Shown here: piece by piece, positions 24,049 to 43,771 of the stretch
Layout: the number at the start of each line of letters is the position of its first letter
How positions within the stretch are numbered: position 1 is the stretch's first letter
Origin: Nitrosopumilus sp.
Lineage (GTDB): Archaea; Thermoproteota; Nitrososphaeria; Nitrososphaerales; Nitrosopumilaceae
Assembly: GCA_965218695.1 (NCBI GenBank)
Contig: OZ244651.1
Coordinates: forward strand, 352,001 to 416,000
Direction of reading: 5' to 3'
DNA length: 64,000 nucleotides
The notes under the pieces: model-generated
What the model was told of the DNA's origin: nothing
Databases searched by the model: none
The model's input: the letters and a program-made list of their open reading frames with translations, nothing else
Made by a program: the position numbers and the translations under genes

Positions 24049-24768
24049 ATTTCTGTGTTGAGCCGCGTTACCCACCAGGAAATATTTGTCAAAATTCGGA
24101 TCGGTGATGCCCAGGTTTGTCAGTCCCTGTTCCATGTTAGCAGGGTTCTTTCTCATCCATTCATAGATGCCCCATTCTAGAATCTGCTGATCGTGAGGTT
24201 TTGCTGACCGGCAGCCCGAACAGTGATACTGTACGCGAGGCTGTTTCTGGTAGTTGTGTATCGTGAGGAACAGCACGTCAGAATCCAGCGTGGATTGCAC
24301 GGATGGGTTGTAGTTTTTTCTGTCTGCCATCCAGCTCTTGATTATCTTTGGTTTGATTATGCCCAAACTTCGTTTGGCGTCGTTAAGGTCCTGTACACAG
24401 CTGACACCGAATTCATTGTACAGTTTTTTTAGCAAATCAATCTGTTTTGGACGTGTCAGTTTGTCAACTACTTGGATCTTCTCTCTTAGTCTAGACCATT
24501 CGTCTTTCGATCCCTGAACTTTCCAGCTTTCGGCTCTGGTGTCTTGCGGGTTTTTTTCTAAAGGCATGCTTACGACATTCCATCGAGGCATCTTAGCTTC
24601 GGGCGGCACGGGGTATATCCTAACAAGTCCGTGTTTGGGAGAGTAACACGCCGTGCATACGGTTCTTCGGCTGTCGCTTATCTCATCAGGAACTGCGTTT
24701 CCCAACATAATAAGATCGTCCATTACAACTCTGTCCGGATCCACATTACCAAGTATGGTCAGTATCAT
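24004..24768 (-). CDS. Hypothetical protein, possible OB-fold/Zn-binding partner of DUF488
   Basis: Intact 254-aa ORF; TVCTAC...VRIYP...R.ES, CSGC...H..QILEWG and FLVGN...H...F motifs; family assignment is tentative. Confidence 0.6.
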   Translation of the reverse strand: MILTILGNVDPDRVVMDDLIMLGNAVPDEISDSRRTVCTACYSPKHGLVRIYPVPPEAKMPRWNVVSMPLEKNPQDTRAESWKVQGSKDEWSRLREKIQVVDKLTRPKQIDLLKKLYNEFGVSCVQDLNDAKRSLGIIKPKIIKSWMADRKNYNPSVQSTLDSDVLFLTIHNYQKQPRVQYHCSGCRSAKPHDQQILEWGIYEWMRKNPANMEQGLTNLGITDPNFDKYFLVGNAAQHRNSFMVISVFRFKRSV

Positions 24769-24801
24769 AAATCATTATCTATAGCTAAGATCAAAAGTTC
24801 G

Positions 24802-24944
24802 TGAATACATGATAACCCTGCCCACCCACCACATGTAGCGGGCTGACCCCTAAATACACATGGTCACAAAGACCTAGTTCGTGAATGAGGCTATCCGAGC
24901 TGCTGTGTTACTGACCATCCGAGCCCTTGGATGTTAGTTACATG
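24802..24944 (+). ncRNA. Orphan IS110 left end with a bridge-RNA-like structure (no recombinase attached)
   Basis: Colinear with the reconstructed IS110 left end (reverse complement of 42854-42881 joined to 41488-41597); conserved CCCC/GGTC-ACAAA-GACC frame; guide AGTTCGTGAAT (24876-24886) equals its own junction (24796-24806). Confidence 0.75.
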
Positions 24945-25270
24945 TCTTGATCCCGTACTTGTACTCAAACAGGTACAGGCCGTAGTCCACGCATTCCATG
25001 GCAAGCGCAATGTCCCTCATGGTTTTGTCCCAACCATGCGTGTGGTTTCGTCCTGCACGTATTAAAGACCCCCTGTAATCATGGCAACAGTTCTTCCAGA
25101 AGCATACCAAGTGCTGGCCGTCACATGGCGGCATCATTTTCTACGTGCCGTGCCTCACGTCCTCCATGGCATGCATGTTTTGCGGCAAGAGGCACGGCCA
25201 ATACCAGATCATTGGATCCGCACGCCCTTCGTTTTATTTGCACGAATTTTGGCGTGTCATCATGAATGGT

Positions 25271-25715
25271 TTATTCGTCTAACAAATGACGATCGTCGCC
25301 TTTCATACGGTCACGCAACTTTTTCAAGTTTTGTGCTCGTGCAACCTGATCATTGTTTTCACATATCTCTCGTAGAACAGTCACTTGAGACGCACTCATG
25401 TATTTACTGCCCAGTAGATCAACAATTCTATCGATAATCTTGTTTGCTGTATCAAAATTATAGGCTCCCGATAATAGTTTTAGCAACATATCCGGATTAT
25501 CGGGTTCTAATGCCATCATGATGTCACACGCCAAACCGACATAATTTGGATTTGAATGATTCAGACGTGGACAATGATGCCCGCCTGTAAATCCGATTGG
25601 AACTTTGCCGTCAAAAGTTACCGGGACTATTGTTTTCTTCAAAGCTAGAGCCATGCCTGCCTCCTGTTCCGTAAAATTTGCACCGTGATAATCTACAGAA
25701 ATTAGTTGAATAAAG
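25271..25715 (-). pseudogene. TIR-domain protein, 5-prime part lost at an IS66 end
   Basis: Upstream in-frame reading FIQLISVDYHGANFTEQEAGMALALKKTIVPV resembles the TIR betaC-alphaC(Glu)-betaD segment. Confidence 0.75.
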
Positions 25716-27241
25716 GTAAGTGTTCACGTCGTGCCTAATTCAGTTCACTCTTGGGTAAATTTTGTGCAAACCACAGATCCAAATAGGATGGTAATCCAAA
25801 CCCGATGTGAAAAGCCAGGCTGAACTCAAAAAGATGTACACGGATCTCAAGACTGAGAACATCAAGCTCAAGCAGACGATTGAGATGCAAGGGCAGATAA
25901 TTGAGGAATTGAATCTGGCAGTTGCTGATCTTAAGCGCAGGCTGGTGCGGCATGACAATTACAACACCCCGTCATCACAAAAAAGGGGGCCCGGATGGCC
26001 TGACACAAAGGGAAAAGGCGACGAAAAGAATGCCTACAATAAATCCACAAAAGCCTCCCGGGATCAAAAGGACCGCGTGGATGCGGCCGGCAGCGGGAAG
26101 TCGCGCGGGGGGCAAAAAGGCCACATGGGCCGCACCCGCAAGCCAAAACCCACCGAGTTTGAGGAACACACCCCGGAGGCCTGCCCCGAATGCGGCTCGG
26201 GTAGCCTTTCCATAGTGCAGTCAGAAAAACGCGACATTACCAGGGTGGAGCGCACGATAAAGGTCATCACCACGCGCCACACCATAAACACGTGTCGCTG
26301 CTCCTGCGGTCTGGTGGACATCAAGCCCGAGACCGGCCTTCCAGACAAGGGCAGCTACGATCCGAGCATAACGACTGATGTTGCAGACGATTACGTGTGT
26401 CGCATGCCGTTTAGGATGATCGCAGACCACATGTCGCGGTACGGAATTACACTCTCCTCGGGCACGGCGCACAACATAATGCGCAGGCTGGGAACGTCGC
26501 TGGGCGCCCCTGCGGCAGCCATTGCCGCCATGATACGCAAGGCCAAGATACTGCACGCCGACGAGACATCGATTCACCTAAACGGCCGCAACGTCTGGGT
26601 GTGGATACTGCACGATCCGCTGACCGGGCACGCGCTGTACGTGATACGGGACAGCCGGGGGGCAAAGGTTCTGAAAGAAGCGCTTGGGGGTTGGGACGGC
26701 ACGTTAGTGTGCGACGGCTGGACGGCGTACGGAAAATACCGCGTCCAGCGCTGCTGGTCGCACATAATACGCGAGGCCAGGGACATCTGCAACCGCAATC
26801 CGGACTGCCCAGGCGCGCGCAACGTCCTGAAGCACCTGCGCATAATCTATGATTATGCCAGAAGGGCAAGCAGGAAACGCTCGCGCTCTCTCCGGGACAA
26901 CGCGTCTGCCATGCTGACGTCATGCATCGAAAAGATCGTTGCAAGGTACGCCGACGATCCAATATTGGAAAAATTCATGGTCAAGATCAGCAATGCTGGC
27001 AGCGACCTGTTCCGGTTCGTGCTGAACCCAAAGATCCCGCCTACAAACAATGCTGCAGAACGCGGGTTGCGCGAGATAGTCGTGCACAGAAAAATACGGG
27101 GCAGCATAAGGGCAGAGGAGACGATGACGTGGATGGCGAATTTCTTTTCATGTGTAATGACATGGAAAAACAAGAAATTGGATTACTTGGCGGAGATTGC
27201 AAAATACGCCTAAAAATGAGTTAAACCACGTGAACACTTAC
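25716..27241 (+). mobile_element. IS66-family element; no TSD
   Basis: TIR GTAAGTGTTCACGT at both ends; flanks GAATAAAG and GAATTTCT do not match. Confidence 0.9.
25807..27213 (+). CDS. IS66 transposase
   Basis: NTPSS, GGQKGH, CPECG, HADET, VCDGW, QRCWSH, PTNNAAERGLR. Confidence 0.93.
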   Translation: MKSQAELKKMYTDLKTENIKLKQTIEMQGQIIEELNLAVADLKRRLVRHDNYNTPSSQKRGPGWPDTKGKGDEKNAYNKSTKASRDQKDRVDAAGSGKSRGGQKGHMGRTRKPKPTEFEEHTPEACPECGSGSLSIVQSEKRDITRVERTIKVITTRHTINTCRCSCGLVDIKPETGLPDKGSYDPSITTDVADDYVCRMPFRMIADHMSRYGITLSSGTAHNIMRRLGTSLGAPAAAIAAMIRKAKILHADETSIHLNGRNVWVWILHDPLTGHALYVIRDSRGAKVLKEALGGWDGTLVCDGWTAYGKYRVQRCWSHIIREARDICNRNPDCPGARNVLKHLRIIYDYARRASRKRSRSLRDNASAMLTSCIEKIVARYADDPILEKFMVKISNAGSDLFRFVLNPKIPPTNNAAERGLREIVVHRKIRGSIRAEETMTWMANFFSCVMTWKNKKLDYLAEIAKYA

Positions 27242-39092: not shown

Positions 39093-40376
39093 TACAGGAC
39101 ATATGTCAAAAACGTTATTCCAAGGAGAGCGGCATATTCTCAAGTAGTTAATTGACAAATTTTCAGATAAAATATGGTAGGAAAGGCTCCGGTGGATTTC
39201 GGTGATCAAGCCATTAGATCATATGAGTAATCGACCACTTTCAACATAACAAAAATACGCCGCAATAGATCCTATGATTAACCCCCCATCACATCGATAA
39301 ATTTAGATCAGGCACGATCGCGTTTCACATCAAATGCCAGACTCACCTGATCAGATCATACGCAAGTTAGAACAGGAAAACAAAAAGCTAAAAAAGATTC
39401 TAAATCAGAAAGACAAAAAGCTGGAGCAGAAAGACAAAAAGCTGGAGCAGAAAGACAAAAAGCTGGAGCAGAAAGACAAAAAGCTGGAGCAGAAAGACGA
39501 GGAGCTGAGCCTTGAGCGCAGCCTGTGGAAGCGCAGGGACGGCGCGTTGAGCAAGGATGCCGGCAAGAGTGAAATGCTGCACCGGATCGAGGTTTTTGAC
39601 GAAATAATCGGCAGCAAGACCAAGATTTACCGGGCCACGCTAAAAGACAAGGAAAAGTTCCAGTTCATGCTGGCGTATGCCAAGGAATACATGAAGCATT
39701 CTGGCCGGATGCCGCTGTTTCGCGACGACGACTCCAGAAGGTCCGATCCCGGAAACCGGTGCAAGCTGCACCTGAGGCACGCCCTGCTCATGGCGCTGAT
39801 GCACAAAAAGGACAACATCACCCAGGGCGTGCTTGGCGCAGTCTTCGGGATAGACCAGGCCGCCGTGTCGCGGTACCTCAAGGTGATCGACGCGATGCTG
39901 GAAGGGACGCTTCCCACGGCAGACAGCGTGTCAGGGGAGATATCTGCAGCCCCCACCAAGGAAGAGTTCAAGAAGATCGTGCCCGGGCCCGACGGGGGCG
40001 AGATATTCGCAGACGGCACGCACTGCCCCGTGCAGCGCCCGTCCGAAAGGACGGTCAGGCGCATGAAATACTCTGGCAAGAAAAAAAAGTTCACCATCTA
40101 TGTTAACCCTCCCCCGGACTTATCCAGTTTTTGCAACCAGCTTGTCACTTTGGGTATGTTTTTTGCCTTCTTAAGCATTACCTGCAAGCAGAATCCTGCC
40201 CGACCGGCAGAAAATACGGCTTTTTGCCCCGCGGTGTGACACGCATAATCCCTTCCGGGGGGTCTGGGGGGCTGGCCCCCCAGCATTCATGTAGAAACAT
40301 CCCATAGTTCCCATAATTTGTGCACAGCATCCGCTAGACTCGGCATTGCCTACTGGCACCACCACCGGTTCCACAC

Positions 40377-41495
40377 CTACTCGTCCTTCATGACTTGTCT
40401 GATCTTGGAGCGATACAGCTTTTCGTTTCTGTCCTCGTACAGGGTGTCTTCTGTCAGCATGTGCCAGATGATAGTCAGCATCTTGTTTGCCACGTGCGTT
40501 ATGGCGACGTGGTGCTTGTGCCTCTTCATGATGCGCGTGTAGTATTCCTTCACCCTTGCGTCATGGAGCACTGCAGCAAGCGCGCACTGGACCATGATCC
40601 AGTTGACCTTCCTGTTTGAGTCCTTTTTCATCCTGCCGTGGTATGACGTGTCGCCTGACTGGTGAAGCGTCGGGCACATGCCGGCCCAGGACACGAACTT
40701 TTTTGGGTTCCCAAACCGTTTGATGTCGTCGATCTCTGCTGCCAGCAACGCTGCAGAAAATACGTTCATCCCAGTCATGCTCAGCAGCAGCTTCGGGTAG
40801 TGGGTGTCGCGGACGTATCCCTTGATCTCGACTTCGGTCTTTTTTATCTCGTCGTTGCAGTGCCGTATCTGCGATATGCAGCCGTCCAGCACGAACCTGT
40901 CCCGAGAATTCTTCATGTCTGCCTCTTCAAGATACTTTAGGGCCTTTCCCCTCCAGATGTGGCGTCCTCCATCCTTTGGATTTATGTCGCATTTGTCTGT
41001 CAGCGTGTGCACAAAGTTGATCACTTTTGTCCGGTCCTGCACCAGGGTTATCTGGTACCTGAGGATCTGCTTCATTCCCCTGGATTCGGCCGAGCCTATG
41101 TGGCAGCTCGAAATCAAGTCGGCTCGCAGCAGGTGGGCAAGCATCCTTGCGTCTATGGTGTCGTTTTTTATGCTGGCCGACGAGATTGCCTTGATCTTGA
41201 ACGGATTGGCAAGCATCAGCGGGATTCCGGCAGATTCAAATGCATCAGCAGTCTTTATCCAGTGGTTTCCTGTGGATTCGCAGACTGCCCTGCACTGACC
41301 GTATGTGGCCTTTGCGTATGCGGCAAACTCTGATGAATCCCGGGACGTGTTGCTGTACGATGACTCTTCCAGGATTGTCCCTTCATGGCTCATCACGCAC
41401 GTCACGCATTTTCTCTTTCCTATGTCGATTCCAATACTCTTTTCTATTTCTTTCACCTCCTTTTTTTTGTGTGGCAGGCCGGAAGCTGCATCCAT
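40377..41495 (-). CDS. IS110 DEDD recombinase (true start probably near 41447-41456)
   Basis: GIDIGK, CESTG, KNDTIDA and QSG motifs all intact. Confidence 0.93.
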   Translation of the reverse strand: MDAASGLPHKKKEVKEIEKSIGIDIGKRKCVTCVMSHEGTILEESSYSNTSRDSSEFAAYAKATYGQCRAVCESTGNHWIKTADAFESAGIPLMLANPFKIKAISSASIKNDTIDARMLAHLLRADLISSCHIGSAESRGMKQILRYQITLVQDRTKVINFVHTLTDKCDINPKDGGRHIWRGKALKYLEEADMKNSRDRFVLDGCISQIRHCNDEIKKTEVEIKGYVRDTHYPKLLLSMTGMNVFSAALLAAEIDDIKRFGNPKKFVSWAGMCPTLHQSGDTSYHGRMKKDSNRKVNWIMVQCALAAVLHDARVKEYYTRIMKRHKHHVAITHVANKMLTIIWHMLTEDTLYEDRNEKLYRSKIRQVMKDE

Positions 41496-41597
41496 CTATC
41501 AGGGCTCGAAGCCCAGTAACACAGCAGCTCGGATCGCCCCATTCAACAACTAGGTCTTTGTGACCAGGTGAATTTAGGGGTCAGCCCGCCACAGGTA
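41480..41597 (-). ncRNA. Putative IS110 bridge RNA (target-binding and donor-binding loops); 5-prime end separated by IS630 and continuing at 42854-42870
   Basis: CCCC-[TAAATTCACCT]-GGTC-ACAAA-GACC-[TAGTTGTTGAAT]-GGGG, then AGCTGC-[TGTGTTACT]-GGGCT-TCG-AGCCC-[TGATAGATGGAT]-GCAGCT; three of the four loop strands clearly match target or donor. Confidence 0.8.
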
Positions 41598-42851
41598 TAC
41601 CAAAAGTGAAAAGTTGATGCGATTGTCACATATTTTACCACATCTAAAGTTATACCAATTTCACGTCCCACAGTCAATGAAGATCAAGACGATGTTGAAA
41701 AGATACGCCGCTGAGACAGACTGCGATACCAAGGACCGCATGATGCTGATCATCAGAGTCAAACGTGATGGAATAACCATGAGGGATTCTGCAAAATCCC
41801 TGGGAAAGTCAGCCTCGTGGGGCTACAAGTGGCACGAGCGCTACCTGGAAGTCGGATTTGACAGGCTGGGAAACATGCCGCGCTCCGGCAGGCCGACCAA
41901 GGCGAGCAAGGCAGACATGAAGAAGATCAGAAAGGCCGCATGCAGGAAACCTGTCTGGACTGGCATGGAGATGCAGCAATACATCCAACAGAAGACCGGA
42001 GTGAAGTACGAACTCGGATATGTGCGCCAGATACTGCGCGGGTGGGGCTATTCCCAAAAGGTTCCCGTAGGAAAACATGCAAGAAGGGCGCCTGACGAGG
42101 AGATCAGGAAATTCCAAAAAGAGATGCCAGAGCTTATAAAAAAAAGAACAGTGAAGGAACAGTCGTAGCGATACAGGACGAGTCCATAGTAATCTCCGAT
42201 GCGCGGCCGCGAAGACGCGGCTACACCAGGAAGGGAATACGGGCGTTTTTCACGTACACCGGCTCACACTCCAAGACGATAATCCATGGACTAATCACCA
42301 CGGACGGCAGGGGCATGTTCCGGCAGTACGATGCGTTTACCAAGGACACCTTTGAGGACTTTCTAAGGCAGGCGATGTACAGGTTCAAGAAGATCTGCCT
42401 GATCATGGACAAGGCCTCCCAGCACAGGGCATCAAACATACGCAAACTGCTTGATGGCACAGACGGCCTGGAGATAATCTTCCTGCCAACTGCGACCCCG
42501 GACCTGAGCGCCATAGAGACGTACTGGAGGGATCTCAAACGGGCAGTGCTTGACGTGCCGTACACCAGCCTGAGCATGCTCCGCGAGGCGATCACCAGGT
42601 ACGCGAGGTACAAAAAACCAAATCTGGTAGTCGAGAATTTTCTGTACAGGGCCATCTAGAACGACATCAAACCACACCGGATCCACGCCGCCTAGCGTGT
42701 GCCATGCACGGCGCATCAGAGCATGCAATGTCTAATGTTCGGGGCGTCTTTTCTCGTCATTTGGGAATTCAACGCACCTCGTAATTTCCAGAGATGGATG
42801 TCGCATCAAAAATTTATGAGCGATTTTGATATGAATTTTTCATTGCTGGTA
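41598..42851 (+). mobile_element. IS630-family element inserted in the IS110 left end
   Basis: TA duplication (41596-41597, 42852-42853); TIRs TACCAAAAGTGAAAAGTT / TACCAGCAATGAAAAATT. Confidence 0.92.
41677..42659 (+). CDS. IS630 transposase in two frames joined by a probable -1 frameshift
   Basis: HTH ORF to 42168; A8G run 42138-42146; the -1 frame continues KNSEGTVVAIQDES...MDKASQH...PDLSAIETYW. Confidence 0.85.
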
Positions 42852-43771
42852 TAGTGGGTGGGTGGGGTTATCATGTATTCAACAACACCAACGTGTACGC
42901 CAACAAAAACGGGGTGATAATCGGCATATCCAAGAGCACCGTCGGGTCAGTCGGCGACATCACGCTTCTCAAGGAACGCCCCATGCCGTTTGGAAGATGG
43001 GAGGAGGCGATGCACGACCCGGATCTGCCCGAGGCACAACGGTGCCACGTCTTTGTCGACCGCGGCTACCAGGGGATCGAAAAACACCTGCCCGGCACGA
43101 CCCCGGAGATCCCGTACAAGAAGAGCAAGAAGGCGCCCCTGACGCCGGAGCAAAGGGAGCACAACCACAGGATCCACTCCGAGCGCGTGCTAGTCGAGCA
43201 CACCATAGGCAGGCTCAAGCGCTACGCGCGTCTTTCCGACCCGTACGACGGAACCGCGGCGCAGTTCAACCGGGAGTTCAACGTGATCACAGGGCTGGTG
43301 AACCTGGACCTTTTGTGGGACTACGTGCAAAAGGGCCCGCCGCCACCGGGCCGGTGGAGGATGCAGGTAGACTGGGACAAAGCCTGCTCCCGGGAACCTG
43401 TCAAGTAGAATTCAGGGCACATCGAGGTGCTACAGGACTGCGCACGCCATCTTGGATTTTGTAATAAATTAATTCGCCACGCACTCGGCATAGTTGGCAT
43501 TTAGTCGTATTTTTCTGATTTTATGGCCCAAACCGGCAAGATGGGAGGGATTACTCATGAGTTCTATTAGAATTTACCAGAATCGAAGCCATCCGGGCGC
43601 GCGTCGGCCTCTCGCTCCATGGCACGATGCACGGGCGCTGGTTATTAATTGACATTTAATCAGATTTAAAATACCGATCAGCTACTTTTGTAGATTAAAT
43701 CATTCGGAAAGATCATCGGACCGCATAATGACGGATTGTCTGTTCTATTCGAGAGTATTTTGTATCAGACT

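Follow-up and report, generated by a model that had tools for sequence, protein, structure and literature searches.

The segment at positions 24802-24913 (+) of the window, by which the whole 64,000-nucleotide stretch of DNA analyzed here is meant, raises the question of whether a bridge-RNA region standing without a recombinase is a working, trans-acting guide or the remains of a past insertion. By alignment, the segment matches the left end (LE) of an IS110-family element colinearly, and it is one of 15 LE copies of this family in a genome of 2.63 Mb in 9 contigs; the host is archaeal, the archaeal SSU model being the best of the rRNA clan with a full-length match of 1468 bits. The initial annotation had described the segment as a copy of the LE and bridge RNA of the same IS110 family as a full element elsewhere in the window, and on this point sequence reading and alignment agree. 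It had placed the end of the copy at 24944; the LE homology does begin at 24802 but ends at 24913. It had also reported that no recombinase or right end follows, and blastn and tblastn searches of the locus likewise find neither beside this copy, which is referred to below as the orphan.

The orphan is preceded by the repeated motif CTATAGCTAAGATCAAAAGTTCG (24776-24801, +), which forms the left half of the insertion target and has uninterrupted copies elsewhere, and whose last five positions, GTTCG (24797-24801, +), are the ones read by the 3' guide strand, family covariation being found only at -5 to -1. The core dinucleotide TG of the left junction follows (24802-24803, +), TG being present at both junctions of complete copies, and then, according to the alignments, the start of the LE with one half of the subterminal inverted repeat, ATGATAACCC (24804-24846, +). 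In the consensus structure the 5' strand of a long closing stem occupies 24834-24845 (+), and its 3' partner is missing. The target-binding loop (TBL) given by the RNAalifold structure extends over 24847-24890 (+) and consists of an outer stem CCCC / GAGG with one C·A mismatch (24847-24850 / 24887-24890, +), a 5' guide strand TAAATACACAT complementary to the right flank (24851-24861, +), an inner hairpin, again from RNAalifold (24862-24874, +), and a 3' guide strand TAGTTCGTGAAT identical to left flank plus core (24875-24886, +). The last stretch common to intact LEs, 24891-24913 (+), comprises a linker and the 5' half of a donor-binding loop (DBL), within which the outer stem strand GAGCTGC is followed by the loop strand TGTGTTACT.

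The sequence AGTTCGTGAAT has exactly two matches in the 64-kb window, one at the junction of flank and LE (24796-24806) and one inside the RNA (24876-24886). The 3' guide strand of the orphan repeats the left flank GTTCG and the core TG, agreeing with its own flank at 5/5 programmable positions and at the core, whereas the reference element at 40097-42879 has GTTGT at both places; the 5' target-loop strand is TAAATACACAT (24851-24861) in the orphan and TAAATTCACCT in the reference. With the repeats AGTTCGTGAAT and GTTGTTGAAT located, the proposal that guide and flank differ in step between the two copies holds, as does the accompanying observation that the other guide strand differs as well.

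The reference element (40097-42879, -) measures about 1.53 kb without an insertion that it carries, and comprises, all on the minus strand, the right end (40097-40376), the gene of a 372-aa recombinase (40377-41495), the bridge RNA (about 41466-41595), an IS630-family insertion of 1254 bp with TA on both sides and HTH and DDE_3 domains (41598-42851), and the LE tip (42854-42879), with core TG at 42881-42880 and 40096-40095. It is an IS110-family element as initially assigned, but it is "full" only in a qualified sense, its own LE being split by the 1254-bp insertion. Because of this split the true left junction, 42880/42881, lies 1.3 kb from the guide (41541-41552), and GTTGTTGAAT is accordingly found both at the junction, 42877-42886(-), and in the guide, 41541-41550(-). 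The recombinase matches PF01548 (3.4e-24), PF02371 (1.4e-22) and NF033542, "IS110 family RNA-guided transposase" (226.9 bits, cut-off 140); alignment to IS621 (chain 8wt6_A, E 9e-13) indicates conservation of D, E, D..D and the SG serine, the roles of the DEDD/Ser residues of IS621 being taken from their description in PMC11208158. The element lies inside a DDE-transposase gene of another insertion sequence, whose frame, on direct reading, is restored by removing the element and one copy of TG. A 4-bp core TGAA was considered for it and rejected, the bases after TG varying between copies. An identical twin is present at genome position 2050750 (C1:2047983-2050769). Both twins reside in copies of the same DDE-transposase insertion sequence and differ in their damage, the LE being split here and the right end there; the two may have spread as passengers of their host insertion sequence. 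IS630-family elements, recognizable by TA duplication and TACCA...TGGTA ends, have entered LEs of the same subfamily twice at different TA sites, between LE tip and bridge RNA in the window and inside the left-target guide at C1:630372 (L007).

Ten of the 15 LE copies in the genome adjoin a recombinase gene, and seven of these ten genes are uninterrupted, among them the copy at genome 239159-240271. All complete copies have a structured RNA in the interval from left junction to recombinase start, 33 nt inside the LE, and the consensus fold obtained with RNAalifold from 11 LEs is a long closing stem that encloses two modules of stem, internal loop and hairpin. A covariance model built from 11 LEs was run on a sample of 141 genomes of the genus and has matches in 21. 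In the alignment of 85 matches, 83 of them distinct, compensatory, two-sided changes are seen at 31 of 34 base pairs; for the 83 distinct sequences the proportion of paired cells is 89%, compared with 78.6% after shuffling and 26-46% with slid partners, and none of 500 shuffles attains the observed pair values. Of the two loops, the first is hypervariable, with 1.5-1.9 bits at each position, and the second is conserved except at two positions. A two-loop architecture of this kind is that of bridge RNA as described in PMC11208160 and PMC11208158. Searches of Rfam at gathering scores, and of Rfam 15 at E up to 0.1, return no family for the bridge RNA or for the orphan locus.

Every complete copy has the junction layout left flank-TG-LE ... 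RE-TG-right flank, and TG is identified as the core because the bases after it differ between copies. The 3' strand of the DBL, TGATAGATG, is equal to the right-end tip ATAGA plus core TG, and the 5' strand TGTGTTACT, judged by eye, fits TG-AATACA only discontiguously. The subterminal inverted repeat of about 10 bp (ATGATAACCC / GGGTTAACAT) is evident on direct reading, and the right end is about 280 nt long. A handshake-like role for the variable dinucleotide that follows ATAGATG was considered and rejected for lack of covariation with target positions: comparison with right-target +1, +2 and left-target -2, -1 gives 33, 29, 21 and 29 of 100 against an expectation of about 27 ± 4, the highest tally, 33/100, facing an expected 27.6 ± 3.9. 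A subgroup with AG as core occurs in other genomes of the genus (L033, L036, L038, L051, L054, L061, L062, L083), and there the change from TG to AG is joint at the junction, the target-loop strand and the donor-loop strand (TGATAGGAG).

The initial annotation had proposed collecting all copies of the LE and examining guide/flank covariation, and the outcome is strong covariation at both loop strands. For the left flank, the 85 model matches were reduced by seven (two from the window's own split LE, one whose LE breaks off within the guide, and four whose loop strand is not 12 nt long), which leaves 72 distinct flank/guide pairs, drawn from 21 genomes of the genus. In the first loop, the 3' strand reproduces the sequence of left flank plus core: matches at positions -7 to -1 number 12, 17, 46, 62, 56, 56 and 57 of 72, whereas shuffled pairings give 12.8, 17.6, 19.0, 19.7, 22.7, 18.5 and 24.8, with a per-position maximum of 40 at -5 to -1. 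The total is 306 against 135 ± 9.6 in shuffled pairings, the maximum in 10000 shuffles being 174, and with one row per distinct guide (59 rows) it is 256 against 112 ± 8.6. The programmable left part therefore consists of five positions plus the core and does not include -6 or -7, because covariation is present only at -5 to -1. The core at the junction is the core in the guide in 64 of 72 copies (56 TG, 8 AG). The 5' strand, taken as its reverse complement, corresponds to the last right-end base, the core and the right flank; among the copies with a right end in this genome, 7/9 match their right flank at 5-8 of 8 positions, for a total of 42/56 over seven distinct pairs, whereas 1854 derangements average 29 and reach at most 35. 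The exceptions are the reference element and its twin, which match at 2/8 in register and have the six bases GGTGAA with a one-base shift.

These results narrow several of the initial claims. The 11-nt identity at the orphan exists as a repeat, but only five of its nucleotides and the core TG are informative: the A at -6 is not part of the guide, position -6 matching in 17/72 pairs family-wide against 17.6 in shuffled pairings, and the trailing AAT, taken for variable guide, is constant element sequence. With up to one mismatch the 11-nt repeat has 0.9 chance hits expected per window, and 24/100 shuffles contain at least two, and the significance of the guide/flank match is therefore drawn from the family-wide test because a single 11-nt repeat is weak alone. 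Natural retargeting among relatives is confirmed by the covariation, yet it is not new, because such covariation is published behavior of bridge and seek RNAs: covariation over 5,511 target pairs led to the discovery of bridge RNA (PMC11208160), and "natural reprogramming" is described among seekRNA relatives, ISEc11 compared with ISXne4 (PMC11187229). Archaeal IS110 recombinases are also on record, 662 being counted in one survey (bioRxiv 10.1101/2024.06.21.599552).

The target motif is uninterrupted at two other places in the genome, reading ...AAAAGTTCG-TG-TGGA.... The orthologous locus in the genome of a sister species, G002 (L015 about 2004), is an empty site: its left flank is 96% identical to that of the orphan over 504 nt and continues ...AAAAATTTG-TG-TGGATTAATTCAG, after which comes a 1.1-kb multicopy repeat. 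From the orphan's 5' strand TG-TGTATTTA is predicted, and both the G002 ortholog and the paralogous empty site in this genome have TG-TGGATTAA, a match of 6/8, such that the initial prediction of a right flank resembling TG-TGTAT is approximately borne out. At the empty cognate site 2426894(-) the left target and core are perfect and the right target matches at 6/8. By comparison of these sequences the orphan insertion is apparently one that went to its cognate site, and it would be younger than the split from the G002 species because the G002 site is empty. As a motif, the GTTCG-type target is conserved over about 30 nt (24776-24803; C1:2426888, 1197886; L015 about 1980-2020), has a TATA-like CTATAG about 20 nt before the core, and is located at the edge of the 1.1-kb multicopy repeat, of which it may be the end or the promoter. 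At C1:2266382-2266648 two solo right ends in inverted orientation are separated by about 50 nt, and after each of them comes TG-TGGATC, which is the right half of this target.

The nearest relative of the orphan in the genome is the LE at 912813 (c912813), which blastn finds to be 95% identical. It is the sole other GTTCG-type copy in the genome; it shares the left guide and the flank motif with the orphan, its 5' strand differs by one base, and its recombinase is truncated and contains a stop. Decay of the orphan is slight, because only 6 of about 113 LE positions differ from this sibling. Up to 24905 the orphan is at least 93% identical to GTTCG-type LEs; identity collapses from 24914 onward, the intervening 24906-24913 being invariant in all LE copies; relative to c912813, 18/19 positions are identical up to 24905 and 15/27 over 24906-24932. 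Because family homology is lost after 24913, the orphan is left without half of the DBL and without closing stem, recombinase or right end; specifically, it lacks the DBL inner hairpin, the DBL 3' strand, both 3' stem strands, the partner of the closing stem, and the right flank. No hidden right end or right flank was found downstream. Two candidates for the right flank were discarded: CGTGTGG at about 25036 is a 7-nt coincidence, and a match to G002 at 25193-25258 corresponds to sequence 64 nt past the right end in G002, with no right end preceding it here.

Within the part that is retained, the guide strands and the inner hairpin of the TBL are present, the outer stem is mismatched, and the predicted fold is weak. 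The C·A in CCCC/GAGG is uncompensated, 50 rows of the family alignment having CCCC/GGGG, and other variants of this stem in the family are compensated, as in CTCC/GGAG and CCGC/GCGG. The predicted TBL fold is -7.6 kcal/mol (z -0.37) for the orphan and -17.2 (z -2.40) for the sibling at 912813. The orphan region as a whole is not predicted to adopt the family fold, at -36.2 compared with -51 kcal/mol, and a check of bridge-RNA completeness indicates that its DBL and closing stem are not intact. The initial suggestion that the RNA could act in trans is not borne out: half the DBL and the closing stem are gone, the TBL stem is disrupted, the predicted fold is weak, and the orthologous site of the sister species has no orphan. 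A metatranscriptome (X1), of which contigs only are available, has none over 24743-24877 and has no bearing either way on transcription of the orphan; its contigs over 24500-24735 and 24908-25019 derive from relatives, because they contain 5-7 differences and run into unlike sequence. Debris of the IS110 family is common in the genome, because 5/15 LE copies are without a recombinase and two solo right ends are also present.

The sequence joined to the orphan at 24914 is the 3' end of a degraded small multicopy ORF (24914-25137, -), with the stop codon at 24934-24936 (-). The complete ORF encodes 95 aa in G002, where several copies exist, and the window copy is short by about 96 nt; the minus-strand ORF 24934-25137 was considered as an intact gene and rejected, being a shortened copy of this 95-aa ORF. 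Pfam has no family for the small multicopy ORF or for the ORFs adjoining the orphan. In another genome, G018 (L016), an LE of a different subfamily (G018a), with TCTAG both as left guide and as flank, is fused with this sequence at the identical point: from 24914 onward the window and G018 are identical at 21/27 and then at 82/98 positions. The TBL stem of G018a is mismatched as well (CACC/GGGG). Over 24914-24932 the orphan resembles G018a and a further LE copy, c2257459, and not its own sibling. The other copies of the small ORF have unrelated 3' flanks. The small ORF is found near IS110 LEs in three loci of three genomes, two of them fused at the same point of the DBL DNA, and the small-ORF loci are the window copy (24914-25137, -), L016 about 1620-1730, L018 1575-1862, L020, L021 and L022. 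In G002 the small ORF lies 330 nt upstream of a complete bridge RNA that has no recombinase. Contigs of two further studies cover 24807-25300 and 24871-25077 with zero differences, and the junction of the orphan is therefore not an assembly artefact, because both cross it; a third contig spans the whole stretch and may be the source of the window. Downstream of the orphan come 775 bp that have no second copy in the genome, and then an IS66-family element begins at 25706 (25807-27213, +), one of about 40 nearly identical copies in a genome exceptionally rich in insertion sequences.

The reading favored here, with a probability of roughly 80%, is that the orphan is the relic of an RNA-guided insertion, truncated and slightly decayed, and not a working gene. 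An element of the GTTCG subfamily would have inserted at AAGTTCG-TG-TGGAT, at the edge of the multicopy 1.1-kb repeat, its own TBL picking the site through a 3' strand equal to left flank plus core and a 5' strand complementary to core plus right flank; in the order of events reconstructed here, this insertion would postdate the split from the sister species G002. A later rearrangement would then have exchanged everything beyond LE nucleotide ~110 for the small-ORF tail, the likeliest route being recombination within the 23-nt LE-invariant stretch 24891-24913, with a pre-existing fusion of LE and small ORF like that in G018 as the putative partner, and the process would have removed the DBL's 3' half along with closing stem, recombinase, right end and right flank. 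A homologous exchange with such a fusion would account for the loss of the right flank as well, and the guide/flank identity would therefore be a fossil footprint of the known bridge-RNA mechanism. Some residual function is nevertheless conceivable, given the integrity of both guide strands, which continue to match cognate empty sites, the in vitro recombination that separate TBL and DBL RNAs of IS621 are reported to support (PMC11208158), and the seven recombinase ORFs of sibling subfamilies that the genome has without interruption. Also against a relic of this history are the slightness of the decay relative to the sibling and the occurrence of the same junction between LE and small ORF in a second species behind another LE subfamily, which could mean that a specific process forms the junction.

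The intact guide strands are also the starting point for a different explanation, in which a promoter such as the TATA-like CTATAG some 20 nt upstream drives transcription of the orphan, a trans-acting guide module whose TBL alone loads a dimer of a sibling recombinase and, together with the DBLs of intact RNAs, steers circles or rearrangements to AAGTTCG-TG-TGGAT. Such a division of labor has precedent, in that the TBL and DBL of the IS621 synaptic complex are described as coming from two RNA molecules and separate TBL and DBL RNAs of IS621 are reported to support recombination in vitro (PMC11208158); moreover, the TBL scaffold is nearly identical across subfamilies, and the genome offers the seven intact recombinase ORFs together with unoccupied cognate sites. 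The GTTCG specificity, if it is used at all, must act in trans, because the recombinase of the 912813 copy is truncated and contains a stop. However, the 4-bp outer stem of the orphan TBL contains its uncompensated C·A, the TBL is predicted to fold weakly and the region as a whole lacks the family fold, the 3' partner of the closing stem is missing, the stem of the G018 counterpart is mismatched too, and the empty G002 site indicates no conservation of the orphan; integrated copies of IS621 are, in addition, described as expressing their bridge RNA weakly (PMC13626964). A trans-acting orphan is accordingly judged very unlikely. It is highly doubtful, too, that the genome keeps guide modules uncoupled from recombinase genes, with the GTTCG specificity surviving through use in trans, although this would also cover the complete bridge RNA without a recombinase in G002. 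That RNA (L022/L047, C1:1974615-1974772) scores 160.8 bits and has a left guide GTTCG identical to its flank, with no recombinase or right end within about 2 kb, and as a candidate orphan guide RNA it surpasses the copy in the window.

A further explanation retains the truncation of the orphan but regards it as non-accidental, the junction after LE nucleotide ~110 recurring by a site-specific process: either the small-ORF unit inserts specifically into DBL DNA, or the recombinase uses DBL DNA, which mimics the right end plus core, ATAGA-TG, as a pseudo-site. The same junction and downstream sequence (82/98) indeed stand behind two LE subfamilies in two species, each LE being closer to a complete element (the orphan to c912813, at 95%, and G018a to c2257459) than to its counterpart; in G002, moreover, 330 nt separate the small ORF from the recombinase-less bridge RNA downstream of it, and LEs are frequent insertion targets here, because IS630-family elements entered this LE twice, at different TA sites. 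Nevertheless, there are two examples only, the other small-ORF copies have unrelated 3' flanks, and a single fusion followed by homologous exchange in the invariant 24891-24913 needs no new mechanism and predicts the likeness of 24914-24932 to G018a and c2257459, so that a site-specific process is considered unlikely. Chance, finally, could produce an 11-nt repeat, given 0.9 expected hits with up to one mismatch per window and at least two hits in 24/100 shuffles, and the junction could in principle have been created in assembly; with a family-wide covariation far beyond that of shuffled pairings, and with contigs of two further studies crossing the junction without difference, the combination of coincidence and artefact is extremely improbable.

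The family to which the relic belongs resembles IS621, an IS110-group element of E. coli (PMC11208160; PMC11208158), in that the left end encodes an RNA upstream of a DEDD/Ser recombinase gene and from the same strand, the target loop varies while the donor loop is conserved, the target-loop strands represent left target plus core and the complement of core plus right target, and a 2-nt core occurs at both junctions; one nucleotide past the core complement matches the last base of the right end, at the place where IS621 has its handshake guide. It differs from IS621 in the order of the guides, the RTG-like strand being 5' and the LTG-like strand 3' here while the IS621 order is given as stem-LTG-stem loop-RTG (PMC11208158), and the order is likewise reversed relative to that described for ISEc21 (PMC11187229). 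Further differences from IS621 are a core of TG (AG in a subgroup) instead of CT, a programmable left part of 5 nt instead of 7, the subterminal inverted repeat of ~10 bp and right end of ~280 nt, the archaeal host with proteins only distantly alike (E 9e-13), and, for the orphan, the absence of everything past the first half of the DBL. In placing the complement of the top strand first, the guide order is like that described for the IS1111 seekRNA elements ISEc11, ISKpn4 and ISPa11 (PMC11187229), and the long right end and long subterminal repeats are like those described for the IS1111 group (PMC11208160), but the RNA is upstream of the recombinase here and downstream of the transposase gene in IS1111. 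The family is thus mildly unusual in combining the upstream, IS110-type position of the RNA with the IS1111 order of the guides.

As an RNA module of the IS110 family at a locus without a transposase, the orphan is comparable to the "orphan ssr9" loci described for ISPpu9 of Pseudomonas putida (PMC12288879). Ssr9, however, is not a bridge RNA, and by that account has recombination boxes of its own and moves via circles, whereas the orphan has no right element boundary and is truncated inside the RNA. It is also like solo ends and other truncated remnants of insertion sequences, examples of which here are the 5/15 recombinase-less LEs, the two solo right ends and the nested insertions. Such a remnant keeps a readable record of target choice because the guide is carried in the element end itself.

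For the most part these findings confirm in an archaeal genus what bacterial IS110 and IS1111 elements showed, that an element's own RNA loop spells its insertion site, with close relatives in the family differing mainly in the letters of the loop. The approximately 70 natural guide/target pairs, with cores TG or AG and 5 + 2 left positions, constitute a specificity table for an uncharacterised archaeal bridge recombinase, and the combination of an upstream RNA with the IS1111 guide order bears on the divergence of the two subgroups. Remnants like the one at 24802-24913 are usable to date and map past insertions.
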